DNA of 64,000 nucleotides from Bacteriovoracaceae bacterium UBA4573 (GTDB lineage Bacteria; Bdellovibrionota; UBA1018; UBA923), in the NCBI GenBank assembly GCA_002387735.1, contig DGKJ01000108.1, forward strand, positions 473 to 64,472. Reading direction: 5' to 3'. Positions 1,361-63,504 of the stretch are shown here, piece after piece; the stretch's first letter is position 1; each line of letters begins with the position of its first letter. Under the pieces are notes generated by a model. The model saw only the letters and a list, made by a program, of their open reading frames with translations, ran no database searches and had not been told where the DNA came from. The position numbers and the translations under genes are program-made.

Positions 1361-1500
1361 AGTAAATCTCCTTTTAATTAATCTTTTTAGATCCTCGGCT
1401 TATAGCCTGGGGAGCTCGGCCCGTCAATGCAGTCCTTAATACTTGACTATTATTGTTTAAAAATCAACTCTTTAGCCCTATTTACCGATTCGTTAACGAT

Positions 1501-39486: not shown

Positions 39487-41388
39487 TTAATCTTCGCTTG
39501 GATCAAAACAAGAACTCGCACTCACGTTGGGTGTGCCACGCGAGAGTTGTTTGATGCCTTGCGCGGGGTTGCCCACGTCTTGCGGGGGCGAGAACGCCGC
39601 GTTTCGGCCAGCAGGAGTTGTACCGCCACCCACGGCAGAACAATCGGTTCCCGAACACACCTGGCAACATCCAGCTTGAGGTGTTTTTCGAACCGCATTG
39701 ATTGGGTTGTAGCTTAGTTGGCACGCGTACGTTGTATCGGTTTTCACGGCAGCCGCTGAATCTGCTAGCGAACACTCCCCGGGCGCACGGTTCAGTGGGT
39801 TCGGGTCGGCTGGTGGATAATGTTTGGCACACCAAAAGTCGTAAGGGCCAACCGGCGCAGGGAAGATCGTCGAATCAGTCGAAAGCACGATTTCTGGATC
39901 GACTGGCGTGGAAGACTGAAATGCGCACCCCTCGAACGTTGTGTCTTCTAAGTAGCGTGGCACGAACGCCTGGTAAGGACGCACCACAACGGTGCCGTCT
40001 GTTTTCTGAACTTCATTTGGCACCGGCGGAAACACCGGGCACTTTGGATTGCCGTCGATCTGATCGCCATCGATGCTCCACCCTGTGAGCGAGGCGTCGC
40101 TCATGCAGCGCTGGCCAAACTGCGCAGTTCGAAAACTAAACGGACATGGTTTGGGCCCCAATCGCGTGATTGGTTTTAACGGGTCGACGGTTGCTTTGTT
40201 GACCGGACGGTCCATTACGTAGAGCGTGTTGATTTGTTGTGACTGATCGAGCGGGTCGCCGTCGGCGTTGTAGCGCAAAGGATAAGCTGCTGAATATTTT
40301 CGCAGCCGAAACGTGCGGCGAATCTGGCCGTTGCTATCGGCGAAACTTGGACACGAGCCATCAGACTGCGGTTTGGCGGCATAGCCGATGGTTCCAATAA
40401 TACTCTGACTTGTTCCGATCGGAACAACCGTGAGCGAGTTTACTTGCACGGGAAAATCTTTGCTCGAATTGAGCGCCAGCGCAAAGGTGGTGTCCATCGG
40501 GTAAAAACTTTGAACTCCAGCTATGTTGGTGGTCGGGCACACAAAACCATTGGCAGAAGAGTTCGGACTGCCCAGTTCGGAGTTTCGAATATAAAAATCG
40601 TAGTAGTAGCTTTGGCCAGTGAACGCCCCCGCGCCCAATACGAAGTCGTTGGCCACCGGTACCGTGTTAGTAGTGGTGCCATTGCTCACGTTTTGAAGAT
40701 TGCGAAAAATGCCCTGGTTCTTTTGCGCACGATCGTAACAAACGTAGTGATAAATGTTCTTGTAAGAGCGCCCTTCGATGTCGCGAAAGTCACCCTGCGA
40801 CGTCACGGTAGTTTTGGTGACAAGTACCGTGTTAGTCGCAAAACTTTGAGTACTGCCAGCCGCTGAATTTGGAATAATACTCACGCGCACCTGAGTGTTG
40901 TCGAGAATTTCGCTATTGGTCCAAGCTGGCGGGAGCGCGCAGCGCATTTGAAAACTCGTGATTTGGTCGGGCTCGGCGTCGGCGGTGCGAGTAATAGTAG
41001 TGGAATCACTCGAATTGGTTTCCGACCAGCTGTAGCGGCAGCTACAGGCTTTACCCGTGTCGGCGCCTCCGCCCGACTGCACTACGCAAACTGAGTTAAG
41101 GGTGGCAGTGGCACCCGCATTTAAATAGAGGTTTAAATGAGTTGCCGGTGCACCGGTGGCGCCACTTGCACCGCTCGGCCCGACTGCTTCGAAAGTGGCG
41201 TTGTAGATATTAAACGTCGGCCCGGCGCTGCTGCTGCTCGTGCCTGAAGTACTCGCAGCGTTTTTTCGTACAATCGAAGACGTATCGCCGCCGGTATTCA
41301 CGCACCCCGAAAGCGCGCCAAACGAAAGCGTGGCCACCGCGAATAACGCGGCGAAGAGGATGTGGGTGTTATTCATTTTGGTTTTCAT
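39487..41388 (-). CDS. Cys-rich secreted lipoprotein, paralog A (about 634 aa), function unknown
   Basis: AGGAGG RBS plus ATG. Lipoprotein signal MKTKMNNTHILFAALFAVATLSFGALSGC. About 20 Cys in motifs such as KACSCRYSWSE, QMRCAL and AGCCQVCSGTDC. Acidic C-terminus DPSED. Confidence 0.55.
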   Translation of the reverse strand: MKTKMNNTHILFAALFAVATLSFGALSGCVNTGGDTSSIVRKNAASTSGTSSSSAGPTFNIYNATFEAVGPSGASGATGAPATHLNLYLNAGATATLNSVCVVQSGGGADTGKACSCRYSWSETNSSDSTTITRTADAEPDQITSFQMRCALPPAWTNSEILDNTQVRVSIIPNSAAGSTQSFATNTVLVTKTTVTSQGDFRDIEGRSYKNIYHYVCYDRAQKNQGIFRNLQNVSNGTTTNTVPVANDFVLGAGAFTGQSYYYDFYIRNSELGSPNSSANGFVCPTTNIAGVQSFYPMDTTFALALNSSKDFPVQVNSLTVVPIGTSQSIIGTIGYAAKPQSDGSCPSFADSNGQIRRTFRLRKYSAAYPLRYNADGDPLDQSQQINTLYVMDRPVNKATVDPLKPITRLGPKPCPFSFRTAQFGQRCMSDASLTGWSIDGDQIDGNPKCPVFPPVPNEVQKTDGTVVVRPYQAFVPRYLEDTTFEGCAFQSSTPVDPEIVLSTDSTIFPAPVGPYDFWCAKHYPPADPNPLNRAPGECSLADSAAAVKTDTTYACQLSYNPINAVRKTPQAGCCQVCSGTDCSAVGGGTTPAGRNAAFSPPQDVGNPAQGIKQLSRGTPNVSASSCFDPSED

Positions 41389-41399
41389 CTCGCCCCTCC

Positions 41400-43391
41400 T
41401 CATTCGCTGTCCTGTAATACGCATAGTGGAAACTTCACCAGTCGTTCAAACTGCGTGGCGGTATTTTCAGAACCCAATGAAATTCCGTAGTGAATATTAT
41501 TGTTGTTGCGATCTTTGCGGTACGGCTTGAATTTACGCGCACTGGTGGAATTGGGATCGGTCATGTCTTCCATGCGCACGCTAGCGGGTGTAACTACGTA
41601 TAGATAATCAAACGTTGAACTGGCATCGATGTCGATCGACGATCTGCGATACGGGTCGGGCCCAATAATGCCGTTGAAAAACAAACGCCCGGCCGCGTCG
41701 GTGTCGGCCTCGATACAAGCGGTGCTATTGCTACCCATGAGCCACACATTTTCGCCGCCGATTGCTGGCAAGTCCCATAATCCCGTAAGGCCAGGCGTAC
41801 AGTAATTTCCGCCTTGGGTGTAATTCGCCGCCACTCTTCCGGCGCCAGTAGCACCGTAGTCGTAACAACAAGACCCCCCGCCATTTACGGCCTGCACTGC
41901 GGCTGAGGAACAAGCATTTCCAGCATTTAAGTAGCCACCTCCAGGTGCCCAATTATCGCCAATCACGCCACTCGTACTGCAGTTGCCGAAATAGGTGCCT
42001 CCAGCGCCCGACGGTACCATTGGCCGTGGTCCTATGATTCCCGGTGTGGTTCCTGATCCTTGAGGATCTGCATCCCAACAAGCCGAGTTTTGGTCCGCCG
42101 TTGGTTCCGAACACTCCTGATTCTGGGTCGTGCAGTAGAGATAACCAATTTGTCCTGAATTACTCGCCGATTCCATGGTGCGTTTTTCTAAACTTGCACG
42201 AAAGCGCCAGAGTTTTGCCCATTTCTTGCCAGCAGGTAAATTGACCACGCTGGTGTTAGGACATTCTTGATTCGCATTCGGCAGTGCCGCAAAACCGATA
42301 ATGTCTTTACCCACCGATGAGGCCGTTGTTTTCGCAAGCGTCACCGGCGCAGAAATTCCGGTGGTAGTGCAAGAGAGCGACGGGTTCACCATGTTTGCCG
42401 GCGTGTGCAACGTGCACACTGGTTGTTTGAACGTGCCGTCCTGAAATTTCGCGAGTGCGAAATCGTGACGATTTACTAAAAACTTTTCGCAATCCGCCTC
42501 AGTACCAGTCGGACAGTCGGGGTCGATTCCCACTTTGTCGTCGGGCGGGTAAATGGTGTTGTCGTTTGTTGCGCTACCGCCGTAATCTGAAAACGAAAGT
42601 GGATCTACGCTATAAACTTCGTAACGAATCGAAGCATCGAACGTTGAATCGTTCGGCACGGGCGGGCACTCAAAACCCGGCGTGTTTTCTACACTCTCTC
42701 CTATCGCCACCGCATGGGCGCCGTAATCGAGCCCCAGTGACGTCGTGTAAAAATTGTAGGCCTGACTCAAGAGCCAGGCTTTTGGATCTTGTAGATTTTG
42801 ACCGTAAAAATTAGTAGCCGACCGTGATTTGCGAATCACGTCGCGACACATGTAGCGGCTGGTTTCAACGTAATTTGCCGCCACGCTCGGATCCAGTGAT
42901 GGACTTATTGAATTCATGAACACTCGCGTTTTATTAGAATTCGCGTTGGCCGAATTGATGAAAATCGAAACATCGTAGTAACCCGCGTTCGATGAAACTT
43001 GAGTGTAGAGACAACGGGCCATGTTCACTTCTACATAAGAAAGTGCCTGAAACCGTTGGGCAGGAACTCCACCAGATTCGGTAAAATCAAATTGGCACTG
43101 GCAAGCATCGGCCGTTGGGCAGTAAGTGGCCAACTGACCATTCGAACCAATGAGCTCAATGGTAGTATCGGGGTTCAAGTTCGACCGGACCACTTTTGAG
43201 ATTGTAATAAAATTCGCGCTCGCAGTTGTGGTCGCACTCGAACTATTCGAGGCCACTTTAGAAGCCGCGGTCGATAGACCGTTGGCTCCCGTGTTCAAGC
43301 AGCCCGTGAGCGAAAATGAAATAAAGGTAATGAAAAATCCGCACAGGATTTCTAAAAAAAGCGTCTGCTTTTTTTCCCAACTACTCCCCAC
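41400..43391 (-). CDS. Cys-rich secreted lipoprotein, paralog B (about 663 aa), function unknown
   Basis: A GTG start at 43391 gives (M)GSSWEKKQTLFLEILCGFFITFISFSLTGC. Shares collinear motifs with paralog A (ACQCQFDFTE vs ACSCRYSWSE; NMARCLY vs QMRCAL; GGSCCYDY vs AGCCQVC). The ORF track extends to a GTG at 43472. Confidence 0.5.
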   Translation of the reverse strand: MGSSWEKKQTLFLEILCGFFITFISFSLTGCLNTGANGLSTAASKVASNSSSATTTASANFITISKVVRSNLNPDTTIELIGSNGQLATYCPTADACQCQFDFTESGGVPAQRFQALSYVEVNMARCLYTQVSSNAGYYDVSIFINSANANSNKTRVFMNSISPSLDPSVAANYVETSRYMCRDVIRKSRSATNFYGQNLQDPKAWLLSQAYNFYTTSLGLDYGAHAVAIGESVENTPGFECPPVPNDSTFDASIRYEVYSVDPLSFSDYGGSATNDNTIYPPDDKVGIDPDCPTGTEADCEKFLVNRHDFALAKFQDGTFKQPVCTLHTPANMVNPSLSCTTTGISAPVTLAKTTASSVGKDIIGFAALPNANQECPNTSVVNLPAGKKWAKLWRFRASLEKRTMESASNSGQIGYLYCTTQNQECSEPTADQNSACWDADPQGSGTTPGIIGPRPMVPSGAGGTYFGNCSTSGVIGDNWAPGGGYLNAGNACSSAAVQAVNGGGSCCYDYGATGAGRVAANYTQGGNYCTPGLTGLWDLPAIGGENVWLMGSNSTACIEADTDAAGRLFFNGIIGPDPYRRSSIDIDASSTFDYLYVVTPASVRMEDMTDPNSTSARKFKPYRKDRNNNNIHYGISLGSENTATQFERLVKFPLCVLQDSE

Positions 43392-43630
43392 GTTTTGTTC
43401 CCCCACTGTTCTTTTCGTGCAAGAAGCGCGCAAAGTTGAGTTAAGGGTGCAAAACGAAGGGGGTTTTCGCACTCCACTCGGCAGGAAGGTTCGGCAAACC
43501 CCGCTAAGTGGGCGATTCCTGCCCGCCGCGCTGTCGAACTTTTAGGCGAAAACCCCGGGAAACCTAGCAATTTTTGCCTATAACCCATTGTTATTATTCA
43601 GAAAATACGAAAAAATGATACTTAACTAAC

Positions 43631-50416: not shown

Positions 50417-51444
50417 AGGAATACAAGAACTGGTCGTTTGTCAGTGACTCATCCAAAACCATTGAAGTAGAAAAGTTCTTACGCGACCACTGCGGACTGC
50501 AACCCAGAGCCATTTTAAAACGCAAGTTGCGTGAGAAGTTCGTTTTGGTGAATGGGCGCATTGCGGATCGTCTGACTCTCGTTCGCCCGAAGGACCGAGT
50601 CGACGTGCTTCGGGGCGACGATTTGTACATCGCTGCCGAAGGCCAAAAAATAAAACCCAACCCTAAAATCGACTGTGATGTAATTTACGAGTGCAGCGAC
50701 TACGTGGTTGTTAACAAAACGGCCGGTCAACACTCGCACCCGATACGGACTTCCGAAACCGACACACTTCTCAACGCTTTAGTGGCTCGCTATCCCGAAT
50801 GTGCCGAAGAAGGGCGCATCGGACGGCCCCTTGAAGGCTTACTTGTCCACAGATTAGACGAAGGCACCTCCGGACTCATCGTATGCGCGCGCACCAAGTC
50901 GGCGTTTAAACAGTTACAAACACTTTGGGCCGCTCGATCGGTTACCAAAATTTACACCGCATGGTTGCGCGGAACAATTGTAACTGCTGGCACAGTAGAA
51001 CTTAAACTTGAACACGATCCTAAATCAAAAAAACGCATGCGAGTGGCGAGAGCTAGTTCGAAAGACGGATGGACCACCTCGACTAGCATCTATCCGATTG
51101 CTCACGAAAATGATCACACTCTTGTACTTCTTCAAATTCACACCGGAGTCACCCACCAAATTCGCGCAACTATGGCCCATTTAGGCGTTCCGGTTGCGGG
51201 CGATCCGATCTACGGGGAACCCCAGTCCAAAGCTACTCGCTCGGCGACTGTAAAAATTCGGGGACTACCGCACGAGGAATTGCACCGATTCCATTTGCTT
51301 AAAAATCAATTAAAACCTAGTCGATGGCGCAGCCCCAAGCGCACCAGTAAAAACCGCGGATTCAGTCTCCACGCAACCTTTCTGGCGCTTCCGCTGCCCT
51401 ATGACCAGCAGTGGTTCTGTCCGCCGATTCACTGGGACCATTAA
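50413..51444 (+). CDS. RluA-family 23S rRNA pseudouridine synthase with N-terminal S4 domain
   Basis: Catalytic motif HRLDEGTSGLIVCARTK. S4-like KLREKFVLVNGRIADRL. The GTG start overlaps the mltA stop. Confidence 0.8.
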   Translation: MKEYKNWSFVSDSSKTIEVEKFLRDHCGLQPRAILKRKLREKFVLVNGRIADRLTLVRPKDRVDVLRGDDLYIAAEGQKIKPNPKIDCDVIYECSDYVVVNKTAGQHSHPIRTSETDTLLNALVARYPECAEEGRIGRPLEGLLVHRLDEGTSGLIVCARTKSAFKQLQTLWAARSVTKIYTAWLRGTIVTAGTVELKLEHDPKSKKRMRVARASSKDGWTTSTSIYPIAHENDHTLVLLQIHTGVTHQIRATMAHLGVPVAGDPIYGEPQSKATRSATVKIRGLPHEELHRFHLLKNQLKPSRWRSPKRTSKNRGFSLHATFLALPLPYDQQWFCPPIHWDH

Positions 51445-51524
51445 AACACCGGAAACATTTGCCGAGTTAAAAAACGCGCAAGATGAGATAAGGTACGGGC
51501 AAGCACCAGAAGATAAGGAGAACT

Positions 51525-52049
51525 ATGTCTTACAAATATTTATCTGCCGTGGCTCTACTCGCATTAACCGTTTTTGGTTCTCGCGCCGAAGGCGCCGGTC
51601 TCTGGCTGGGCGGCCAAGGCGGGATCGTCAAAGCTAACTCCAGCCAATTCACCGTATACGGTGCTACCGTAGGGGTCATGCCCACTCGTTCGTACTCGCT
51701 CGGCGCATTTTATTTAGTTTCCAATACAAAAACCGCATCGGTCGGACCAGTGACCGCAGAAACCAAACTAGCGTTTTATGGCGGAGATTTTTCCCTTCAC
51801 CTTGATCCGATGGGAGTAACTCGAATTGGAATTAAAGGTGGTTTAAGTAAGGTTGAAGGCAAAGCGCGAGTACTTGGAGTTTCGGTTGGAGCCTCTTCAA
51901 CCGATCTCGCCATTGGACCATCGATTGGTTTTGATTTGAAGCTTGGCTCCGGGCTCAGCATTGGCGCCGAAGGCGCGTATTTGCGGGTCATGGCCGACGA
52001 TTCGTACTCGGCTTTACTCGCACTTGGAGCCCTTAAACTCTGGTTCTAG
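51525..52049 (+). CDS. small outer-membrane beta-barrel protein (paralog of 36196..36729)
   Basis: AAGGAG RBS. Signal peptide MSYKYLSAVALLALTVFGSRAEGA. C-terminal ALKLWF ending in Phe. Confidence 0.55.
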   Translation: MSYKYLSAVALLALTVFGSRAEGAGLWLGGQGGIVKANSSQFTVYGATVGVMPTRSYSLGAFYLVSNTKTASVGPVTAETKLAFYGGDFSLHLDPMGVTRIGIKGGLSKVEGKARVLGVSVGASSTDLAIGPSIGFDLKLGSGLSIGAEGAYLRVMADDSYSALLALGALKLWF

Positions 52050-52058
52050 CGCAAAATC

Positions 52059-53537
52059 TCAGAGAAATTTTTCGCTAAATTCACCGTTGGAATACATGAA
52101 CAATTTGCGTTGACCATCAACTTCAGTTTCTAAATTCACCGGCCGGCGCCACACTTCGGAAAGATTGCGCATGGTCTCGCGAGTATACCGCGAATCCAAA
52201 TCAACGCCCATGTGTTTGTGCAGCATGAGCAGTTCTCCTTTATTCAAGTAGTTACCATCGGCAACGTAAATGAAGGGCTGGCCCATATTGGTCAAACCGA
52301 AGAGGGTTTTTTCTTTTATCTTCTTAAAATCGCGATCAGCTATTTCATACTGATTGGTGCGGCGATTGAATTGATAGGTATACAATTTGAAGCGCTCACA
52401 AAACTCGGGCGTTAAGTACTCGTCGATAAATGTCACGTCATTACAAACGCGCCGTACTTCGAAGATCTTTTCTTTACCTAGTCCAAGCTTCTTGTCCCAC
52501 TGGCGCTTAGCTACGATATCGTCGCACTGTTCGTAGTCTTTACCGAACTTCCCACGATTCCATCGATCTTCTACGTCGCGCAGCAACTCAATACCAATCT
52601 TGTACGGATTAATACGACCTGGTTGCATGGCCATGGTACCGGAATGATGGTCAGCGTAATCAATAACTTCCGAATCACGTAGCGCTTTTTCGGTAAGTAT
52701 TCTTGAATGCCAAAACGAAGCCCAACCTTCATTTAATATCTTTGTTTGCCACTGAGGAGCATAATAATACGCTTCATCCCGAATCATGGCGAGCACATCG
52801 TGCTCCCAAGTTTCTAGAGGTGCGTTATCGAGCAGAAAGGCTAGAACGTCTTTTTGGGGTTCACTTGGATTACGTTTTGATTTTACTTCCTGCTGCGCAA
52901 GTTTTCGTTTTTGATCTTCGATAAAATCTGGCGGATTAATAAACGTATCCATGTATCCGCGCTGGACTTTGATGCGGCCAGGAATATTTCCCGAGTCATC
53001 GTTGTCTTCTTTATTTTTAGCGTTGGGCTTGGGCGTGAAAGGCAAAAACGGATCAATCAAATTCTCCAACGAAAGACAGCGATCAATAAAATTTTCCACC
53101 CGGTCAACGCCATGTCGATCCATAAACTCCCGGATTCGCGCGGCATTATTGGCCATGGTGTCGATCATTTTGCGATTAGTTTTAGAAAACCACGTATTGT
53201 TTTTAAAAAAATCGACATGCCCGTAGACATGCGCCATGACCAACTTCTGATCGATCATCGCGTTCGATTTCATTAAATAGGCGTAGGAGGGGTCGTTATT
53301 GATTACGAGTTCATATATTTTCTGCAACCCATAGGTATAGGTTTTAGAAAGTTGGTCGTATTCCATTCCGAAACGCCAGTGAGGATAGCGCACAGGAAAC
53401 CCACCGAGTGCCGCCACTGCGTTGAGTTGGTCGTGCTCCAGCAATTCGAAAACCGTCTCAAAAAAATCGAGACCGTAGGAAACCGCATATCCCCGAATTT
53501 CGTCACGCAATTTAGCAAGTTCGAGAGGTAAACCCAT
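52059..53537 (-). CDS. spoVR: SpoVR/YcgB-family protein
   Basis: 492 aa, homologous over its length to the SpoVR family (MGLPLELAKLRDEIRGYAVSYGLDFFETVFELLEHDQLN ...). It sits 3' of yeaH as in the conserved prkA-yeaH-spoVR operon. Confidence 0.8.
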   Translation of the reverse strand: MGLPLELAKLRDEIRGYAVSYGLDFFETVFELLEHDQLNAVAALGGFPVRYPHWRFGMEYDQLSKTYTYGLQKIYELVINNDPSYAYLMKSNAMIDQKLVMAHVYGHVDFFKNNTWFSKTNRKMIDTMANNAARIREFMDRHGVDRVENFIDRCLSLENLIDPFLPFTPKPNAKNKEDNDDSGNIPGRIKVQRGYMDTFINPPDFIEDQKRKLAQQEVKSKRNPSEPQKDVLAFLLDNAPLETWEHDVLAMIRDEAYYYAPQWQTKILNEGWASFWHSRILTEKALRDSEVIDYADHHSGTMAMQPGRINPYKIGIELLRDVEDRWNRGKFGKDYEQCDDIVAKRQWDKKLGLGKEKIFEVRRVCNDVTFIDEYLTPEFCERFKLYTYQFNRRTNQYEIADRDFKKIKEKTLFGLTNMGQPFIYVADGNYLNKGELLMLHKHMGVDLDSRYTRETMRNLSEVWRRPVNLETEVDGQRKLFMYSNGEFSEKFL

Positions 53538-53541
53538 GTGG

Positions 53542-54657
53542 TTATTTTCCCTTCCCTAAAAATTCTTTAATGCTTTGAATGATGCCTTCTTTATTTTCAA
53601 TTTTGGAAAGTATCACTCGGTCGTCAGACTCTTCAAACTCTTCACGCAGGTCTTTAAAAAACTGCCCGCTGCCGTAACGACTTTCCACTTGGCCGTAACA
53701 AAACACGTTCACCCGCGGCAGGATGTCGTTATTCAAAAGATCCATGCATACTTTCGTATCTTCACCCGACCAATTGTCACCGTCTGAGAAATGAAACGGA
53801 TAAATGTTCCACTCACTCGGGGCGTAATCTGTTTCAATCATTTTTTGACAAAGTTTGTAGGCGCTAGAAATCAGGGTGCCGCCACTTTCACGAGTCTTGT
53901 AAAATGTGTCTTCGTCCACTTCTTTGGCGGTAGCGTCGTGGATAATATAACGCGTTTCGATGTCGTGATACTGACTGCGTAGCCATGTATCGATCCAAAA
54001 CGCCTCGGTTCGCACGATCTCTTTTTGTTCGTCGCCCATCGATCCCGACACGTCCATCATGTAAATAATCACTGCGTTATTTTCGTGTTCAACGACCGAG
54101 CGCCAGCTGCGATATCGTAGATCTCTTCGAATGGGCACAATCACCGGAGACTTCGAATCGTACTGGCCCAATGAGATCTGCCGTTTGAGCGCTTCTTTGA
54201 AGGACCGTTTGAAATGGCGCAAGCTGTCGGGGCCAACCCGTGCAATGCCGGTGTATTTGTCTTTGACCACTTTTACCGTTTTGTGCCCGCGGGGTTCAAT
54301 TTTTGGAAGCTGCAATTCTTCGCCCAGAATTTCTGCGAGTTCTTGAATCGACACATCTACTTCTAGACTGTGTTCTCCAGCATTCTGGCCGGCTTTTCCT
54401 TCTCCGTCGCCTTCTTGGGGCTCGCCTTGCCCGATTGCGTCGCCCGGTTTGCCATCGCCCTGCCCCACACCACCAGCCTCTTTATCGCCGTAGCGAAAAT
54501 GCGGAATGTCTATTTGGGGCAGAGGAATGGTAACCATGTCCTTGCCTTTACGACCGATCATTTCGCCATGCGAAATGTACTTTTTAAGATCCTGTTTGAT
54601 CTTACCTTTGACGATATTGCGAAACCGAGCGTGGTCGCGTTTGATCGAATAGATCAT
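53542..54657 (-). CDS. yeaH: YeaH/YhbH (DUF444, UPF0229) protein
   Basis: The N-terminus [27 protein letters not shown] and the Gly/Gln/Asp-rich linker are hallmarks of YeaH. A vWA-like C-terminus. RBS GGGGGAT. Confidence 0.8.
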
Positions 54658-54760
54658 GCAGATCCCCCGACTTGAATTCTAACGATTCGATTTAAAAAAA
54701 GCAAAGGTCCACGCGTACTTGCGTTAGGAAGCGCTAGATTCACAAGACCCACTCACATTT

Positions 54761-57700
54761 TTACGGCGCTGCGCGCGAGTCAGATTCAATAGGGGCAAGG
54801 CGCGCGGGTTGCCCAGCCTTCACGCAATGGGGGTACCAACGCGCCTTGTAGCGAGCCAGTGAATCGAGATGCAGCGCACTAAGGTTTTGTTTTAACTGCT
54901 CTTCAAATTGGCGATCTACCGATTTTGGTTCGCTCTGGTCGTGGGAACTCACCTCGTACTCAAAGTTAACCCCCAGATGAAGATTGTACTCTACGCGCGC
55001 GTCAGTCTTTCGGTAACTCTCGCTTTTCTCTGAACAGCTATCGCTGCCTTCTGAAAAGAAATCGAACCCGTCATCATTCGAAGGTTCGAAAGTTATGATG
55101 GTGTGAAGGTCCTCAACTATGCTTTCGGCTACGTTCTCAAATTGCCACCAATTGGACTGGGCATTCGCGCATAAATAATTGGTCGCCGACTCGAAATTAG
55201 TGCCTACTCTTTTTTGAAACGCTTTCATCGCTGAACTAGGGTGGCTCCGGTAAATTTTTCGCAAATTTGGCTGACACACCTTAAACATCATCGTTTCTTT
55301 TAGTTCTTGGGGCCATTCACCAATGAACTTTAAAGCCTCCGCGCGACATTCTTTTTCACTCTTACTTTTGGCCATGGCCTTGAGTCTCTTGCGATCCTCG
55401 GCAAGACTTGCTTTGCGGGAAACGAATATTGGTTTAAACAGTTCAGTGAGAAATTTTTGAACCCCCGTTCGATTCTTTTGAAACTCTTTTTCAATTTTTT
55501 GTTCGACGACCGCACAATCACGCGTGCTTCGCCGATGCTGAACCTGCCTCCAATGAGCGCGTACCAAGTCTCGATATGCTGACTTAAACATTAAATTGAA
55601 CGTCGCATTTTTTTCGTTCTTCTCGCGATAACCACAGTCGGAGGGAAAAGTTTTTTCATTTTTAGAAGTAAGATTCCGTGAGCAATCACCAAAGTATTCC
55701 AATAAACCATCTGAGCCCAAACCCACGTCACGGTCGTAGTTTGCCCCTAGCTGTTCTAACATAGTCAGTCCGCGCAAAAGTTCTTCTAGATGATCGAATT
55801 GAAACGAACCTCCATATAGATTTTTTTTGAACTTTACGATCAATTCGTCAACGACTCGGTCGGCTAGTTTTTGATCTGCGCAGCTCGGCAGTTTAATGCG
55901 ATTGCTGAGGAGCCAATTGGCCAGGCCGTCAAACGACCCGTTCGTGAGTTGATTCCATAGTCGTTGGCAGGCCCGAGCAGTTTGTTCTGGATTAAGCGGC
56001 GGGAACCATTCGTATCGGGGGCGAATGGCTAAATCCGAAGCCATCGGATCGTCGACAATGGCGCGGACTACTACGTTCTCGGTGCGTGGATCACAATTAC
56101 TTTTATCTTTAAAACAAACCCCGATGCCTTCCAATTCGTAAGGACTCGGTAAATCTTCGTCTTCGACTAACGTAAAATCCACGCCAGCCTTTATTCCGCG
56201 TTCAATCCATTTTCCATTCGGTAAAGCAATGCCCGCAAGTACTGTTGCATTAGCGAAGTCCGTATTCGATTTCCTCGCAAGCAACCACTCGACCGACGGG
56301 TCACCCGCATTTAACAGATCATAGAACGTATTTTTCAAAACCCTTAAACGTTGGCGGCCCGAATTTTTAGGGCCATCATAGCCCCAACTTTGAATTAATT
56401 TTTCAAGCTCGTGAGAAACCCCAAGCCCCATAAAGTCTCGCGGATTATAAGGGCGTGAATCAGCGATCGAAGTACTAAATCCTGCTTTTTTTAATTGTTT
56501 TACAAGACTCACATTGCGATCGAGAATCGCTAAATCTAAGAGGGTCCATGGGACCTTGCCATTGTTCATTGCATTTTTCGCCAGTTTGGAACCACCAAGC
56601 AGCTTTATTGCCGCCGCTTTTTTTCCACTTTTATATAGTTCGTAGGCCTTGGCCAAAGTCGCGAAACTTACTGCATGTCCATCTTTTGGGTAGCTAAAAG
56701 CGATCGGGGTACCTTTTTGTTCCGACTCCTCCTTGATTTGTTGCTCATAGGCTATCAGGGCTTTTTCGATTTTTTTCCAGGTTCGTACGATTTGAGGGTC
56801 ACTCTGTTTTTTCAGATCCAGCAATAATCTACTTAACTCAAGCGGGGTGACTCCTGCGTTCTCAAGATTATATTCCCTTTTTTCATTCTTTTTCCCCAAG
56901 CTAGTTTCTAGCGTCTCGATCGACTGGGGCAAACTCCTCAGCGTGGGGTCGGGCCGGTGTTTTAAAACCCAATCCAGCATTTTGTCGTCGCCTAGTTCGA
57001 TGGCGGTGGCTAAAACACTGCGCCCCCAAGCATCGCGCCGATTTATTAGTGTTGGATCGCGCGCAATCAACTGGTCCGCCAAATCAAACTCATTCATTCG
57101 CAGCGCTAACTCGAAAGCGGTTAACCCTGAAGCATCCCGCGAGTGAGCCCATACTCCATTGGCAAAAGCGAACTCTAATAGCTCGGCACTTTGCCATTCA
57201 ACTGCGAGGTGCAACAACGTGCGGCCAATATCGTTTCGGAAATTTCGAATTTTTTCGACGTCTTCGTTAAAAATTGATTTAATCAAAAAAATAGTCCGAT
57301 CAGAACTCCCAACCGGACTGTTGGCTAGAATCCAGTCGATTGGATTTTTCTTACCCACCACTGCGTATTTAAGTGGTACGTCGGCCCGCGCAAACTCTTT
57401 TAAGACAAAGCCATTATGAGCCTTAACCGCTAAACCGAAAGCCGTAATATTTGATTCGTCGTTAAGCCCAACCATTGAAACATTGCATTTGCCCGACTTC
57501 AACAACACGCGCACCACTTGCTCATTACCCGCGGCGGCTGCTGCCATTAAAGAGGTTCTACTGTTTGTTCCAAAGCGAGCGTCGCAATCGGCCCCGTTCT
57601 TAAGCAGAACCGAAGTCAGGTCTTTGTGACCTTTACCGACTGCCTCAAACAAATATTTATCGATCTGAAATACAAGTTTTCGTTTTTTTAGAAGCTTCAA

Positions 57701-57952
57701 AAGCGCATCAACATGCGAAGACTTATTTTTCTCAAACGCTTTCTCAAACTCTTCGGTCCAGCGTTCAAAAAATTTATCGTCGTCTTTAATGCGTTTTAAC
57801 CCACGATAGGTGTATTCGATTTCGTGGGCCAGGTTCTCGGCTTTGCTATACTGGACTTTCCATTCGTCGTCGGAAAAATCCTGCGCGATCGCGTGCGACC
57901 CCACAAACACTGAGGTCACACACGCTAACAGTGTTCTAAAGCTACGCCGCAT
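54761..57952 (-). CDS. secreted ankyrin-repeat protein (about 1064 aa) with large C-terminal domain of unknown function
   Basis: Signal peptide MRRSFRTLLACVTSVFVGSHAIAQ. Multiple ANK repeats (GRTLLHLAVEWQSAELLEFAFANGVWAHSRDASGLTAFELALRMNEFDLADQLI; SLMAAAAAGNEQVVRVLLKSGKC ...). It starts 11 nt after the prkA stop. Confidence 0.7.
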   Translation of the reverse strand: MRRSFRTLLACVTSVFVGSHAIAQDFSDDEWKVQYSKAENLAHEIEYTYRGLKRIKDDDKFFERWTEEFEKAFEKNKSSHVDALLKLLKKRKLVFQIDKYLFEAVGKGHKDLTSVLLKNGADCDARFGTNSRTSLMAAAAAGNEQVVRVLLKSGKCNVSMVGLNDESNITAFGLAVKAHNGFVLKEFARADVPLKYAVVGKKNPIDWILANSPVGSSDRTIFLIKSIFNEDVEKIRNFRNDIGRTLLHLAVEWQSAELLEFAFANGVWAHSRDASGLTAFELALRMNEFDLADQLIARDPTLINRRDAWGRSVLATAIELGDDKMLDWVLKHRPDPTLRSLPQSIETLETSLGKKNEKREYNLENAGVTPLELSRLLLDLKKQSDPQIVRTWKKIEKALIAYEQQIKEESEQKGTPIAFSYPKDGHAVSFATLAKAYELYKSGKKAAAIKLLGGSKLAKNAMNNGKVPWTLLDLAILDRNVSLVKQLKKAGFSTSIADSRPYNPRDFMGLGVSHELEKLIQSWGYDGPKNSGRQRLRVLKNTFYDLLNAGDPSVEWLLARKSNTDFANATVLAGIALPNGKWIERGIKAGVDFTLVEDEDLPSPYELEGIGVCFKDKSNCDPRTENVVVRAIVDDPMASDLAIRPRYEWFPPLNPEQTARACQRLWNQLTNGSFDGLANWLLSNRIKLPSCADQKLADRVVDELIVKFKKNLYGGSFQFDHLEELLRGLTMLEQLGANYDRDVGLGSDGLLEYFGDCSRNLTSKNEKTFPSDCGYREKNEKNATFNLMFKSAYRDLVRAHWRQVQHRRSTRDCAVVEQKIEKEFQKNRTGVQKFLTELFKPIFVSRKASLAEDRKRLKAMAKSKSEKECRAEALKFIGEWPQELKETMMFKVCQPNLRKIYRSHPSSAMKAFQKRVGTNFESATNYLCANAQSNWWQFENVAESIVEDLHTIITFEPSNDDGFDFFSEGSDSCSEKSESYRKTDARVEYNLHLGVNFEYEVSSHDQSEPKSVDRQFEEQLKQNLSALHLDSLARYKARWYPHCVKAGQPARLAPIESDSRAAP

Positions 57953-57962
57953 AAGCTTCGCT

Positions 57963-60038
57963 TTAGGTGCGCTTCTTAACGTCTCCGCGCGCGAAGATTG
58001 AAGCAACGTAGTTGAGCACGTCAGTCGAGCAGATTTCGCAATAACCGTAATTCTTGATCATGCGGCTCTTCACGACGTCGATTTTTTCTTGAGTGGCGCG
58101 GTCGACGACATTTGAAACCAGGCTCGTTAGTTTGATCGAATCCTTTTGGTCCTCGAACAATTTAAGTTCAAGCGCCTTGTGCAAACGTTCGTTGGTTTTG
58201 TAATCGAACTGCCGGCCTTCAATCGCTAGTGCGCCGATGTAATTCATAATCTCGCGGCGAAAATCATCTTTACGAGACTCCGGAATGTCGATCTTCTCTT
58301 CGATCGACCGCATGAGCCTTTCATCTGGTTCTTCGTCTTGACCGGTGTATTTATTCTTTACCTTTTCACGTTGAGTGTAGGCTTTTACGTTATCAATGTA
58401 GTTGCCGCACAACTTAGCAATGGCGTCCTCGTCGGCCGAAATTGCACGTTGAACTTCATTTTTCACGATGTCTTCGTACTCTTGCTTCACCATCGAGAGC
58501 ATTTCTTTGTACTCCCGACGTTTTTCATCGTTCGAAATCAACGCGTGGTGTTTTAATCCTCCGTCGAGTTCGTTGAGCACCATGAAAGGGTTCACGCAGC
58601 CAATGTCGCCGTTTTTGTCATTCACTAGCGCGTTTGAGATTTTGTCTTGAATATAGCGCGGGCTAATACCTTCTAGACCTTCTCGAACCGCTTCCTTACG
58701 CAACTCCTTGACGTTGTCTTCGGTATAACCGGCAAGAGTTTTTCCGTCGTAGAGTTTTAGTTTTTGCATGAGCGTGAGATTGGCTTTTTTCGGAGTCTCA
58801 AGCCGCGTGAGAATAGCCCACATCCCCGCCATTTCAATAGTATGAGGGGCAATGTGTTTTCCACGAATGCGGTTGGCGTTAAAATCCTTTTCGTAAATAC
58901 GCGTTTCGTCTTTTAAACGCGTAATATACGGCACGTCGATCTTCACGGTTCGGTCACGAAGTGCTTCCATAAATTCATTATTCTGAAGTTTCTTAAACTC
59001 AGGTTCATTGGTGTGACCAATGATCACTTCATCTATATCGGTCTGTGGAAATTTTTTCGGTTTGATCTTGTGCTCTTGAGAGGCGCCCAAAAGATCGTAC
59101 AAAAACGCCACATCAAGCTTCAAGACCTCGATAAACTCCACCACACCGCGATTGGCCACATTGAATTCACCGTCGAAATTAAACGCGCGCGGATCAGAGT
59201 CCGAACCGTATTCAGCAATTTTTCGATAGTTCACGTCGCCAGTAAGTTCGGTACTGTCCTGGTTTTTTTCGTCTTTCGGCTGAAATGTACCAATGCCTAT
59301 GCGGTCACGCTCACTCAGTATCAAACGAGTCACGCGCACGTGTTTCATCACCGAAGCCCAGTCACCGTTGTAATGTTTCATGAGCTCGCGATAAATCAAA
59401 CGACTCGGCGGGCACAGACCGCCCAAAATATTCACGCGATAAGGGCCCTTGTTGCCGCGATTTAGCTCGTCAAGCACAGCTTCGCGCGCTTCATCTGGCA
59501 AAAGTTTTAAGGGCTCGTCGTGCATAGGATCGGGATATTCAACAACGTTGCCAATAATGTGTTGAACTTTTCTTTCAGGATCGACCCATTTAAAGGTGTA
59601 TAGTTTACCCTCGTCGGTGCGCGAATAGCGCTCCAATCCTTTTTTCAATAGGCGCGCAATGGTGGACTTCGAACTGCCCACCGGCCCGTGCAACAGCAGC
59701 ACTCGTTTTTCGGTGCCGTAGTTGTAAGCCGCGCTCTTAAAAAAATGAACAAGCTTCATGAGCGGAATATCGAGGCCGTATATGGCGTCTTTTCCGTTAT
59801 CGATAGGGTCCGTGAAGAACTTATACCGCGCGACGTTCTTTTTGAAATCGACGTAACTTTCAACGCCATACGATAAAATCATGTCGTACATTCGTTGAAA
59901 CGAATTGCGCGTGATGAGCGGATTCTTTTTCACGAGATCTACGTACTCTTGAAATGAACCTTCCCAGTGAAACTCTTTGTAGTTTTCAGTCGATTGATGT
60001 TTGCCGACTAAACTCACGATGTCGAATTCACGTGCCAT
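57963..60038 (-). CDS. prkA: PrkA-family serine protein kinase (AAA+ N-domain)
   Basis: 691 aa. Walker [19 protein letters not shown]. Overall architecture of PrkA/YeaG. RBS AGGGGGACACC plus ATG. Confidence 0.85.
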
Positions 60039-60070
60039 GGTGTCCCCCTATGATCCCGACTCCATTCTAT

Positions 60071-60094
60071 CTTTACATCAGTGCGAATGTAAAG
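60071..60094. promoter_or_regulatory. inverted repeat CTTTACAT-N8-ATGTAAAG in the divergent prkA/tldD promoter region
   Basis: A perfect 8-bp inverted repeat within the roughly 70-bp divergent intergenic region. An adjacent 12-bp palindrome TTGCATATGCAA (60105..60116) overlaps the tldD-like start. Confidence 0.3.
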
Positions 60095-60110
60095 TTACGC
60101 TGCCTTGCAT

Positions 60111-61472
60111 ATGCAAACTCTGAATATGGCGTTCGATAAACTCCACCAATTTAAAACCAAAGGCACTATTGACGCGTTTGAGATTCTTTTTCAACGCAGC
60201 TCGCAACTCGGCATTGAAGTGCAGGGTGGAAAAGTAGATCATCTTTCCCGCGCAACCGACCAGGGCATGGCGTTTCGCGTACTAAAAGACCAACGAATGG
60301 GGTTTTCCTACACCTTCGACTTAAGTGAAAACGCCGTGAACGTCGCACTACGCACGGCCATCGATATCGCAGCTCTCATGCCCCAGGACCCGCTCCTCAG
60401 TCTCGTCACCTTTCGCGATCAAAAATACACCACGATCGACTCAAAAAGCGGCCACGATGTCTATGATCTCCAGGGGATCGAACGTAATATTGAAGAAAAA
60501 ATTGAACTCGCCCGAGAAGTTGAACGCGCCGCGCGATCGGTCGATCAACGCATCACGCGGGTACGAAAAGCTGGGTACGATGAATCAATCGGTGAAATCG
60601 TCATTGTCGACACTGATGGAACACGCTTAAGCCATCACGGTACAACTTTTTCGACCGAAATACTCTGCGTGGCGGAAGACGGCCAATCTGCGGAAACCGG
60701 CTATGAATCGATTTCCTCCCCACTCAGCAAAAACCTCAAGGCCACCTGGGTTGGCGAAATGGGTGGCCGCAACGCGCTCGAGCTACTGCATGCCACTCCG
60801 GCCCCCACTCGAAAGTGTCCGGCAATATTTCGCAATTCGGTGGTGGCCGAGCTCATTGGTTTTCTCTCTGGTTCTTTTTCCGCAGAAAATATCGACAAGA
60901 ATTTTTCGCTCTTATCGCTCAATAAAATCGGCCAACAAGTTTTTTCAAAAGAACTAAATATATATGATGACGGACTATTACCCGGGGGCCTAGCCACCGG
61001 TGCGTTCGACGGAGAGGGCATGCCGCAGTCACGCACCACTCTGTTGAAGGCAGGGGTCGTAGAATCCATTTTGGCGGATCAGTATTACGCTCGCAAAATG
61101 AAAATCAAGGCCACCGGCAATTGTTCTCGTGGCATTAAAACACCTCCTTCGATCGGAACCACGAATTTGTATTTGGAAAAAGGTCCTCATAGTTTCGAAG
61201 CGCTTCTTAAACAGGCGCACAACGGCGTCGTGATCACCGAAGTCATGGGCCTTCACACCGCAAATCCGGTAACCGGTGAGTTTTCGGTGGGTGCTAGTGG
61301 CCTTCTTATAGAAAACGGCCAAATCACCAAACCGGTGAAGGGGTTCGCCATTGCTGGCAACTTGACAGACCTTTTATCAAAAGTAACTGCAGTAGGTAAC
61401 GATCACCGTTTTTGGGGCACCACGGGAGCGTCTAGTTTTATGGTGTCTGAGCTAAACATTGGCGGATCCTAA
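60111..61472 (+). CDS. TldD/PmbA-family metalloprotease
   Basis: About 450 aa with PmbA_TldD-family architecture. The ORF-track start at 60105 is a TTG and the first ATG is at 60111. Divergent from prkA. Confidence 0.7.
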   Translation: MQTLNMAFDKLHQFKTKGTIDAFEILFQRSSQLGIEVQGGKVDHLSRATDQGMAFRVLKDQRMGFSYTFDLSENAVNVALRTAIDIAALMPQDPLLSLVTFRDQKYTTIDSKSGHDVYDLQGIERNIEEKIELAREVERAARSVDQRITRVRKAGYDESIGEIVIVDTDGTRLSHHGTTFSTEILCVAEDGQSAETGYESISSPLSKNLKATWVGEMGGRNALELLHATPAPTRKCPAIFRNSVVAELIGFLSGSFSAENIDKNFSLLSLNKIGQQVFSKELNIYDDGLLPGGLATGAFDGEGMPQSRTTLLKAGVVESILADQYYARKMKIKATGNCSRGIKTPPSIGTTNLYLEKGPHSFEALLKQAHNGVVITEVMGLHTANPVTGEFSVGASGLLIENGQITKPVKGFAIAGNLTDLLSKVTAVGNDHRFWGTTGASSFMVSELNIGGS

Positions 61473-61533
61473 ACCTTCACAATGTTTAAAGTTTACGCCT
61501 CCGACTTCGCGGTTTACTATGGAACCACCAGCT

Positions 61534-62283
61534 ATGATGCAACTCAAAGCAGCAGGACTTTCTCACGTCGGAATGAAGCGCAACCAAAACCAGGACAGCT
61601 TCATGCTCGCCCCCGAGCTCGGACTTTTTATTGTTGCCGACGGCATGGGGGGCCACAAGGGTGGCCAAATTGCCTCACTCATGGCGGTCACCACTATTAT
61701 CGACTTTTTGCGCGACCACGTTTCTAAAAACGGCGGCATCGCCGATGCCCGGGCGACGCTCACTCAAGCGCTCGAGCACGCAAACCAAGCCATTCAAAAA
61801 AAGGGGCAGACCGAAGTGGATCTAGCCGGAATGGGCACCACAGCCACCGCCCTACTTTTTCACGGTGGAAAGCTTTTTATCGCACACGTGGGCGACAGCA
61901 GAAGTTATTTGGTGCACCCAAATCGCATTTGGCAAATCACGCGCGACCACTCACTTGTGCAAGAAAAATTGCGCGCGGGCTTAATTACCCGCGAACAAAT
62001 GAAGAGCGACCAAAACAAAAACGTTATTACGCGATCAGTAGGCTTCGAGCCCGAGGTCGATGTCGATCTCTACGAAATCGACCCCCACCCGGGTGATGTT
62101 TTCGTCGTATGTAGCGACGGACTGAGCGGCATGATTTCGGACTCAATTATTCGCGAAGTGGTCGAAAAACGTGTTTTCAGCCAAAACTCGGTGGAAAAAG
62201 CCGCCAAAGAGCTGATCGAAAAAGCAAACCTACAAGGCGGCGATGACAATGTTACCGCCGTCGTCATTCAATTACACGAGTAA
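61534..62283 (+). CDS. PP2C-family Ser/Thr protein phosphatase
   Basis: MMQLKAAGLSHVGMKRNQNQDSF ... FIVADGMGGHKGGQIAS ... VVCSDGLSGM are PP2C motifs. The ORF-track TTG at 61459 would add 25 aa. The ATG at 61534 gives a typical 250-aa PP2C. Confidence 0.8.
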   Translation: MMQLKAAGLSHVGMKRNQNQDSFMLAPELGLFIVADGMGGHKGGQIASLMAVTTIIDFLRDHVSKNGGIADARATLTQALEHANQAIQKKGQTEVDLAGMGTTATALLFHGGKLFIAHVGDSRSYLVHPNRIWQITRDHSLVQEKLRAGLITREQMKSDQNKNVITRSVGFEPEVDVDLYEIDPHPGDVFVVCSDGLSGMISDSIIREVVEKRVFSQNSVEKAAKELIEKANLQGGDDNVTAVVIQLHE

Positions 62284-62292
62284 AACAAAACG

Positions 62293-63504
62293 ATGGCAGC
62301 GAATAAATTTTTTACCATCATGGTGGTGCCCGAAAAAACTCAGAAAGTTCGCAAGATCATTATTCCGCACTATGTCTTTCACGGAATGATCATCGCGATC
62401 GCATTTGCGGCGGTCTTGGCCGTTGTCATGGTGCTCGACTACGCCAACGTCATGAATCAAATTAGCGAAAATAAAAAACTTAAAGTCGAAAACCGCCAAC
62501 TTCGGCAATCGGTTCAAGTTTTTAAAAACAAAATGTTCACTATCGAAAACACTCTGGACCGCGTAAAAACGTTTGCCACCAAACTTCGAATCATTACCAA
62601 CATCGAAGACTCGCCGATGTCGCCAAGCATTCCGGAGTCGATGCCGACGCTTCCGTCGCAACCCGCGTTGCCACCGTTTGCCCCGTCAGCTCCTCACAGT
62701 CAGGCACCGGGTCCTGCACCTCCCAATGTGACTCAACGCATTCCTACCCGCCCGGGGAACCACTTAGGTTCTCCCATCGAAGCAGACACCGATCTCGAAG
62801 ACACTCTCAATCCACTGGCCGACAAAATTATCGATCCCATGTACGCGCAAGAATCGGTCCCACGCTACGATGATCGCCGATCTGAGCGAAAAAATCTTTT
62901 AGCCTCATTAATGTCGGGGGCTCAAGAAATCACCATGGCTTTGAGTGACACTGAGGCTAGCCTTTATGTTCAAAGCGAGTTCGAGAAACTCGATCTGGCC
63001 TACGATGCCGTCAATTCGTTTGCTCTCGAAACCGAACAAGAGACTCAGTTTATTTTAGAAAAGCTCGGCGAAAAACGAACCTTACTTGCCAGCACTCCCA
63101 CTCGCCTGCCCACGCTCGGCTACGTAACCTCGGAGTACGGAGTTCGCATCTCGCCCATCGACGGCCGCCGCAAAATGCACGAAGGAATCGACATTGCCAA
63201 TCGCTACGGAGCCGACATCATTGCCCCTGCCGACGGTCTAGTGGTTTTTTCAGGAGTTAAACCGGCCTACGGTAAACTCGTCATTTTAGATCACGGCAAC
63301 GGAATCGAAACGCGGTTTGCTCACAACTCGAAAACCACAGTCAAAGTTGGTGACCGCGTCAAACGAGGTCAGCGCATCGCCAACGTCGGCAGCACCGGCC
63401 ATTCCACCGGGCCCCACTGCCACTATGAAGTTCACGCCGGCGGCATGCCGGTTGACCCCTGCTGGTACATTCTCGACCACCCGGCGATTTGCCGGTCGCG
63501 TTAA
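62293..63504 (+). CDS. M23 family peptidase (EnvC/NlpD-like) with N-terminal TM, coiled-coil and Pro-rich linker
   Basis: C-terminal HEGIDIANRYGADIIAPADGLVVFSG ... LDHGNGIETRFAHNS ... GSTGHSTGPHCHYEVH (HxxxD ... HxH zinc site of LytM/M23). Confidence 0.8.
   Translation: MAANKFFTIMVVPEKTQKVRKIIIPHYVFHGMIIAIAFAAVLAVVMVLDYANVMNQISENKKLKVENRQLRQSVQVFKNKMFTIENTLDRVKTFATKLRIITNIEDSPMSPSIPESMPTLPSQPALPPFAPSAPHSQAPGPAPPNVTQRIPTRPGNHLGSPIEADTDLEDTLNPLADKIIDPMYAQESVPRYDDRRSERKNLLASLMSGAQEITMALSDTEASLYVQSEFEKLDLAYDAVNSFALETEQETQFILEKLGEKRTLLASTPTRLPTLGYVTSEYGVRISPIDGRRKMHEGIDIANRYGADIIAPADGLVVFSGVKPAYGKLVILDHGNGIETRFAHNSKTTVKVGDRVKRGQRIANVGSTGHSTGPHCHYEVHAGGMPVDPCWYILDHPAICRSR

Follow-up and report, generated by a model that had tools for sequence, protein, structure and literature searches.

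A lineage-specific ankyrin-repeat gene between prkA and yeaH in a Bacteriovoracaceae bacterium, with a possible role as exported cargo

Introduction

Does a gene that interrupts a conserved bacterial operon belong to the pathway encoded there, or is it cargo that came to lie within it? This question is raised by a 64,000-nt stretch of DNA from Bacteriovoracaceae bacterium UBA4573, an uncultured bacterium from sludge that belongs to the Bdellovibrio group (contig DGKJ01000108.1; hereafter the window), where a gene for a large ankyrin-repeat protein, here called ank, lies between prkA and yeaH (region examined, 52059-60038). Strong cofitness links the genes yeaG, yeaH, and ycgB, also named prkA, yhbH, and spoVR, in six bacteria, and in most bacteria a single operon contains all three; their biochemical role is unknown (bioRxiv 10.1101/072470). 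In Bdellovibrio bacteriovorus, the orthologous operon bd0228-bd0231 belongs to the attack-phase core gene set common to Bdellovibrio-like predators (PMC5430801). The biochemistry of PrkA, YeaH, and SpoVR has been a long-standing question, for which a conserved fourth gene could have been a clue. An earlier reading of the window from its letters (the sequence-only reading) considered the insertion unexpected and proposed either a co-opted regulator of the PrkA pathway or a secreted effector carried along with the module. We compared the locus with its relatives and dissected the protein and its expression signals. The gene does not add a new component to the PrkA module, and it might on balance be better understood as accessory cargo that is exported from the cytoplasm.

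Results

A fourth gene in the prkA-yeaH-spoVR module

Four co-directional open reading frames (ORFs) occupy the minus strand in the order prkA, ank, yeaH, and spoVR, with the coordinates claimed by the sequence-only reading. The gene prkA (57963-60038) encodes a PrkA/YeaG-family AAA+ serine protein kinase of 691 aa (PF08298, E 1e-85; PF06798, E 8e-89), 70-90% identical to the PrkA proteins of Bdellovibrionota and Myxococcota. The ATG of ank (54761-57952) at position 57952 opens a frame of 1063 aa, 10 nt past the prkA stop codon TAA (57963-57965). These values trivially correct the earlier estimates of 1064 aa and 11 nt, and the rest of that description stands. After a spacer of 103 nt follows yeaH/yhbH (DUF444; 53542-54657; 371 aa; PF04285, E 7e-88; NF003711, 629 bits against a cut-off of 388), whose stop codon precedes the start of spoVR/ycgB (52059-53537; 492 aa; PF04293, E 6e-136, and PF24755) by 4 nt. 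Pfam thus confirmed the three module families; the NCBIfam families of the module genes agree, with PrkA and SpoVR scoring below the equivalog cut-offs. The three flanking genes are clear members of the yeaG-yeaH-ycgB module by family match and are arranged as in most bacteria. The locus differs from the usual module in that a fourth gene interrupts it, that yeaH seems to own a promoter, and that ank co-occurs with the module nowhere else. By simple arithmetic, the chance of an open frame of 1063 codons at 46.5% G+C is about e^-57.

Absence of ank from related loci

GTDB species genomes and JGI metagenomes, when scanned with PrkA, yielded at least 160 loci, mostly with Bdellovibrionota or Myxococcota labels, in which PrkA is 70-83% identical to that of the window. 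The eight nearest relatives, with PrkA 86-90% identical, came from a protein search and are absent among the scan matches listed. We therefore compared 161 prkA-yeaH loci in total, comprising 153 among the scan matches listed and the eight nearest relatives. A homologue of the ankyrin protein was found in none of the 153 listed scan loci with both prkA and yeaH, in none of the 160 when loci lacking yeaH were included, and the ankyrin gene was found in none of the eight nearest relatives. The insertion of ank is thus specific to one species-level lineage, a point that the sequence-only reading had proposed to check, and the co-occurrence across genomes with prkA, yeaH, and spoVR expected of a pathway component is not seen for ank. 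That reading had also named two outcomes contrary to it, relatives routinely carrying the same ankyrin gene with an annotated function and a lack of repeats detectable by hidden Markov models (HMMs), and neither was found.

The comparison also bears out the view that prkA, yeaH, and spoVR normally lie tightly together. The median prkA-yeaH spacer among the 153 listed loci is 19 nt, and the two genes overlap or abut (0 nt or less) in 31 of them, are separated by 1-50 nt in 78, 51-120 nt in 20, 121-300 nt in 17, and 301-1000 nt in five, with more than 1000 nt in the remaining two. Among the nearest relatives, yeaH begins 0-98 nt after prkA in seven of the eight, the exception being locus L168, which carries an insert of its own. 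Most of the eight retain the upstream synteny of SecA, M23, PP2C, and PmbA followed by the divergent prkA. As a separate observation, one Bdellovibrionota metagenome-assembled genome (MAG; L061, 10001-22064) has neither yeaH nor spoVR within 10 kb downstream of prkA, where a YceI-like ORF was recognised by eye instead.

Unrelated inserts at the same junction

At least seven unrelated inserts occupy the junction between prkA and yeaH in other lineages. The insert of L168, whose PrkA is 89% identical, is an ORF for a coiled-coil protein of 156 aa in which DARFxxxD heptad-like repeats stand in tandem (10193-10663). L083, an unlabelled metagenome contig with PrkA 82% identical, carries a 132-aa protein with a signal-peptide-like N-terminus (2146-2544). 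A 145-aa family, likewise with a signal-peptide-like N-terminus and two Cys by sequence, is present in L027 (12070-12507) and L032 (7791-8231), both labelled Bdellovibrionota, and in L121 (about 2019-2390), an unlabelled metagenome contig. L155 holds a DUF4258 toxin-like gene together with an MqsA-like zinc-finger antitoxin gene (8667-9241), and L040 a 227-aa ORF.

A further occupant is a conserved gene of 70-78 aa found in at least 13 loci, of which the labelled ones are all Myxococcota: L022 (7474-7701), L025 (11129-11350), L034 (12052-12288), L045, L100, L104, L105, L109, L111, L113, L119, L125, and L128. Divergent forms are present in L024 (12054-12269) and L099 (8056-8268). An example begins MDRTTLEALPTVNVEVNGQAAALLIKLMGDLKTEQP; the protein has a strand-helix-helix look by eye and no Pfam match, and we regard the gene as a candidate fourth operon member in Myxococcota. 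In L024, a Myxococcales MAG, and L099, an unlabelled metagenome contig, this small gene is followed, still between prkA and yeaH, by Cys-rich Zn-ribbon repeat proteins with CPxC...CxxCG units and a weak Zn_ribbon_13 match (L024, 12274-14044; L099, 8265-8555).

Homology of the ankyrin protein to any of these inserts was rejected by direct comparison, as none resembles it. The junction is a recurrent cargo slot. Since unrelated genes are found at the same junction, a position there does not imply membership in the pathway. The insertion is less surprising than the sequence-only reading suggested, given the other, unrelated genes found at this junction elsewhere.

Anatomy of the ankyrin protein

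The protein begins with a predicted Sec type-I signal peptide at residues 1-23 (57884-57952, minus strand). By sequence inspection, the N-terminus MRRSFRTLLACVTSVFVGSHAIA, followed by QD, shows the three parts of such a peptide, in agreement with the earlier description of a signal-peptide-bearing protein: an n-region MRRSFR with a charge of +3, an h-region TLLACVTSVFVG, and a c-region SHAIA with predicted cleavage after A-I-A. The usual features, namely a charged n-region, an h-region of 7-15 residues, and small residues at -3 and -1, could all be recognised. The h-region has 12 residues with a mean Kyte-Doolittle hydropathy of 2.06 and is the sole hydrophobic segment of the whole protein, so no membrane anchor is expected elsewhere. 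A lipoprotein reading based on LLAC at residues 8-11 was rejected upon inspection because the Cys lies too near the N-terminus and the hydrophobic stretch before it has just four residues. The 1063-aa form starting at the ATG is the sequence found in NCBI, JGI/IMG, ENA, Logan, and GEM. No signal peptides were apparent by inspection at the N-termini of PrkA, YeaH, and SpoVR, in contrast to the signal-peptide-like N-terminus of the ankyrin protein.

The ankyrin-repeat region covers residues 98-345 (56918-57661, minus strand). The sequence-only reading had proposed an HMM check of the repeats, and five models of the Pfam clan Ank scored above their curated gathering cut-offs: Ank_2 (PF12796) with 63 bits (cut-off 27.3), Ank_3 (PF13606) with 55 (22.3), Ank (PF00023) with 44.4 (21.1), Ank_4 (PF13637) with 43.9 (22.7), and Ank_5 (PF13857) with 41.4 (27). 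The region consists of two blocks of about three repeats each, with single repeats detectable at about residues 101-130, 132-160, 243-270, and 310-337. In a per-fragment scan, the fragments 95-132, 128-168, 236-272, and 305-345 each matched an Ank model by themselves. Designed ankyrin repeat proteins (DARPins) and ankyrin entries in the PDB matched residues 71-222 and 239-336 with a best E-value of 6e-28. The tandem helix-turn-helix repeats of about 33 residues are thus recognisable in the sequence, and the AlphaFold2 model was too poor to confirm the fold. A terminator-like hairpin of 12 pairs followed by ATTTTTTT lies within the ankyrin coding region (57293-57319, minus strand); terminator-like sites occur in the region at chance level, with 11 found against 12 expected.

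The repeats are followed by a Cys-free, basic region with a pI of 9.3 (residues 346-600; 56153-56917, minus strand), for which no family hit was obtained. DSSP assignment on the low-confidence model gave helix pairs, and a weak match to the ankyrin consensus was seen at residues 470-492, so degenerate helix pairs of the ankyrin type may be present in the region, as at 467-495. The remaining part (residues 601-1063; 54764-56152, minus strand) is predicted to be mostly helical and holds 12 Cys, located between residues 613 and 1043, with no domain match, as in the earlier description of a Cys-containing C-terminal region devoid of a recognisable motif. Removal of the signal peptide leaves 14 Cys in the mature protein, and this even count is weakly in keeping with disulfide bonding outside the cytoplasm. 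As there are no homologues to align, AlphaFold2 was run on the single sequence. The resulting models had a mean predicted local distance difference test (pLDDT) score of 42.5 for the mature protein and 39.7 for residues 640-1063, both too poor for a fold search.

An orphan protein from one strain

Because generic ankyrin hits flooded the full-length search, we searched residues 345-1063 (719 aa) separately. An exhaustive phmmer search of 1.84 billion sequences, chosen to represent about 15 billion proteins, recovered the protein itself only. The non-ankyrin part had no match in Pfam, NCBIfam, PHROG, or the PDB, even at permissive E-values, and none in PADLOC, and a comparison with itself by BLAST revealed no internal repeats. 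A scan of the C-terminal region for catalytic and short motifs (HExxH, GxSxG, CxxC, Walker A, and others) found no simple one. A word-indexed search of the non-ankyrin part at E <= 10 also returned nothing, but it failed to recover even the protein's own cluster, and we gave it no weight. With PADLOC, the complete ankyrin protein gave matches at the level of the repeats only (PDC-M72A at residues 101-155, and 'Ankyrin'), and PrkA, YeaH, and SpoVR gave no hits.

The cluster of the ankyrin protein at 90% identity has four members: the 1063-aa form, a 1049-aa JGI call starting at a GTG, and two fragments. The 1063-aa form (P0011) is present on 16 contigs, and the retrieved loci are 100% identical in DNA to the window. 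The sole variant, found in bioreactor sludge (contigs L175 and L176) and in a MAG labelled 'Oligoflexia bacterium', carries a single non-synonymous single-nucleotide polymorphism (SNP), T624P. The gene is therefore that of one strain sampled repeatedly. Large orphan proteins are common in the UBA4573 genome: among the ten largest other ORFs scanned, four have no Pfam domain at E <= 1e-5 (1453-4359, 968 aa; 30486-32258, 590 aa; 39487-41424, 645 aa; and 41400-43472, 690 aa).

Expression signals

A likely prkA promoter was found at 60064-60094 (minus strand), with a -35 element TTTACA (60088-60093) and a -10 element TAGAAT (60064-60069) separated by an 18-nt spacer, matching the consensus at 10 of 12 positions in the promoter scan. 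A 7-bp inverted repeat, CTTTACA (60088-60094) and TGTAAAG (60071-60077), overlaps the -35 element and the spacer. The arrangement GTAACTTTACA-N10/11-TGTAAAG-N-TAnAAT recurs upstream of prkA in the near relatives L167-L170 and L173 and, in partly degenerate form, in the more distant L008 and L013. This conserved element is very likely a real promoter with an operator, and the CTTTACA/TGTAAAG repeat looks like the operator for a regulator that acts on the PrkA operon of this clade.

The scan called neither a promoter nor a terminator in the gap that separates prkA from ank, and the ank start lacks a Shine-Dalgarno sequence of the GGGGGA type that is seen at prkA and yeaH. Lacking its own promoter and a strong ribosome-binding site, ank probably depends for its expression on the prkA transcript, from the conserved prkA promoter, and on translational coupling to prkA across the 10-nt gap.

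The spacer between ank and yeaH contains a promoter-like element at 54676-54705 (minus strand), composed of TTTGCT (54700-54705), 18 nt, and TAGAAT (54676-54681), and followed by AGTCGGGGGA, the likely Shine-Dalgarno sequence of yeaH. In L168, the sole near relative with an insert, CTTTGCTTTTT...TTAGAAT lies at the same distance upstream of yeaH (about 10755-10785); the hexamers and their spacing are conserved between the two elements, but the spacer sequence is not. The pattern TAGAAT-N2-3-AGTCGGG, although chosen post hoc, occurs only twice in the window, once upstream of prkA and once upstream of yeaH. We read the internal element as a putative promoter that keeps yeaH and spoVR expressed behind the cargo. 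The spacer folds no better than its shuffles (z = +1.4), and an Rfam search over 51400-60400 gave nothing besides a sub-threshold chance hit.

Composition and traces of insertion

The G+C content of ank (0.465) equals that of prkA (0.466), and no notable direct or inverted repeats flank the gene, nor were mobile-element traces found there, so that ank appears not to be a fresh foreign arrival. The gene is probably weakly expressed, judging from its codon usage. A 9-nt match, AAGCGAAGC, between the window just before the ank ATG and the prkA-yeaH spacer of L169 was considered as a trace of the ancestral spacer and rejected, being too short to be evidence.

Neighbouring genes

Just upstream of prkA and divergent from it lie genes for a PP2C Ser/Thr phosphatase (61459-62283) and an M23 peptidase (62293-63504). 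Both are kept beside prkA across Bdellovibrionota (for example, in L002-L013, L049, L060, and L167-L173), down to a PrkA identity of about 71%, and the phosphatase is a plausible partner of the PrkA kinase. At the other end, a 174-aa ORF on the plus strand (51525-52049), which has no match in NCBIfam and none recorded in Pfam, converges on spoVR. The two stop codons are 9 nt apart, leaving no space for separate terminators.

Discussion

We consider it somewhat more probable than otherwise that ank encodes an exported, protein-binding accessory protein, which is lineage-specific cargo expressed together with prkA and acting on a protein target outside the cytoplasm. Within this lineage, the gene would have been either acquired or put together, and it would have landed in a permissive spacer, between prkA and the promoter-like element of yeaH. 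The predicted product would be an almost all-helical protein exported by the Sec pathway, whose N-terminal ankyrin scaffold binds another protein and whose orphan C-terminal region with 12 Cys is probably stabilised by disulfides outside the cytoplasm. It would act in the periplasm or outside the cell, and not on the cytoplasmic PrkA, YeaH, and SpoVR. With ank behind the prkA promoter and yeaH-spoVR additionally driven from the internal one, the ankyrin protein would be made whenever the PrkA module is made, which in Bdellovibrio bacteriovorus is a starvation-like attack phase.

Several points weigh against this proposal. Both export and co-transcription with prkA were predicted from sequence alone, the former by inspection, and the predatory lifestyle was assumed from taxonomy. 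The 1049-aa JGI call places the start at a GTG 14 codons downstream and thereby removes the signal peptide. The argument for an internal promoter draws on two sequences, and a T-run after the ank stop codon could act as a weak terminator, leaving read-through into yeaH uncertain. No gene in the window has a lower synonymous-codon score than ank, although ank sits just at the margin of the range (0.018 against 0.024-0.136); this fits low expression or recent arrival and equally a gene of little importance. Selection on ank is not demonstrable from 16 contigs with identical DNA and a lone variant with one non-synonymous SNP.

The alternative closest to the original question is that the protein stays in the cytoplasm, either through the GTG start or with an uncleaved N-terminus, and serves as an adaptor or regulator whose ankyrin repeats dock PrkA, YeaH, or SpoVR or deliver substrates to them. 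The distance of 10 nt ties ank tightly to prkA within the operon, ankyrin repeats are generic protein-protein modules, the JGI call without the signal peptide would allow a cytoplasmic product, and yeaG, yeaH, and ycgB act as one pathway with unknown partners (bioRxiv 10.1101/072470). Against this stands the absence of ank from all 161 other prkA-yeaH loci compared, including the relatives with PrkA 86-90% identical, which implies that the pathway works without ank. Moreover, a full signal peptide with n-, h-, and c-regions lies in frame behind the ATG, and the same slot holds unrelated genes elsewhere, a toxin-antitoxin pair included. We consider an adaptor role unlikely, and the co-opted regulator of the sequence-only reading found no support from a gene absent elsewhere whose product looks exported. 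The other proposal of that reading, a secreted effector carried along, fares better in so far as cargo fits the locus; its suggested action on eukaryotic targets is pure conjecture.

Another alternative assumes export as well, and assigns to the protein a periplasmic self-protection role, in which the repeats would bind a hydrolase that the organism itself secretes and inhibit it during its passage through the periplasm. The precedent is Bd3460, a 23-kDa periplasmic ankyrin protein with a signal peptide that guards the wall of B. bacteriovorus from its own secreted DD-endopeptidases (PMC4686830). Bd3460 comes from the same phylum, combines a signal peptide with ankyrin repeats, and is encoded in an operon with the gene it accompanies; it acts outside the cytoplasm by binding a protein, as we propose for the window protein. 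The window also encodes hydrolases of secreted type that could serve as targets, namely M23, MltA, SLT-LysM, and M4 thermolysin. Compared by description, however, Bd3460 is all ankyrin, with six repeats only, and is encoded beside its target DD-endopeptidase, whereas the window protein is five times larger, contains a 700-aa non-ankyrin orphan region, and is encoded between genes for cytoplasmic proteins. It is thus neither a small all-ankyrin protein nor encoded beside a hydrolase that it might inhibit. The nearest hydrolase gene (M23) is three genes off, past prkA on the other strand, and relatives without ank retain it. An immunity function of the Bd3460 type seems quite improbable to us.

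A neutral or decaying insertion without current function, intact only through its recent arrival, would account for a singleton in all public data with the lowest codon-usage score in the window, no strong Shine-Dalgarno sequence, and no polymorphism that could show purifying selection. It is hardly likely, because the frame stays open over 3.2 kb, the ankyrin repeats can be recognised, and the signal peptide is well formed; the G+C content equal to that of the neighbours and the lack of flanking repeats or mobile-element traces argue against a very recent foreign arrival.

Other bacterial ankyrin proteins offer partial parallels to the exported cargo that we favour. The Dot/Icm effectors of Legionella and Coxiella (AnkX, AnkC, AnkY, and others) likewise join ankyrin repeats to an effector region that varies and is often unique. 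Their export relies on a type IV secretion signal in place of a Sec signal peptide, and their targets are in eukaryotic hosts; nothing observed for the window protein points to either. None of the Dot/Icm equivalog models (T4SS_AnkX, AnkC, AnkY, AnkH, and AnkG) scored above its cut-off with the window protein; their matches cover the repeats only, the best reaching 35.5 bits against 1400 for AnkX (NF043028 and related models). AnkB of Pseudomonas aeruginosa is a small ankyrin-repeat protein with an N-terminal export or anchor signal, encoded directly downstream of a stress gene in the katB-ankB operon, co-transcribed, and conserved with katB. The likeness lies in an ankyrin gene behind a stress gene; the window protein differs in being large, orphan, and confined to one strain.

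A bolder extension of the cargo proposal would see in the orphan 700-residue region a novel domain, an effector or toxin that works outside the cytoplasm and is delivered by the ankyrin repeats as its targeting scaffold, and in the prkA-yeaH junction of Bdellovibrionota a general slot that places lineage-specific exported proteins under starvation or attack-phase control by the PrkA promoter. Besides the ankyrin protein, the examples cited for such a slot are the inserts of L083 (132 aa) and of L027, L032, and L121 (the 145-aa family). We regard this extension as unlikely; if it were true, the operon would both report on predation-phase secretion and offer a handle on it.

For the PrkA pathway itself, a gene confined to a single strain, with a product that is probably exported, says little, and the 70-78-aa junction gene of the Myxococcota-labelled loci is a more promising lead than ank. 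The locus shows cleanly how a spacer inside an operon can serve repeatedly as a landing site for unrelated genes, the interruption being apparently compensated by an internal promoter. The ankyrin protein itself is large and probably exported, and 15 billion predicted proteins offer no relative for one of its domains; should the organism be a predator, the protein would be a candidate for having its structure determined.

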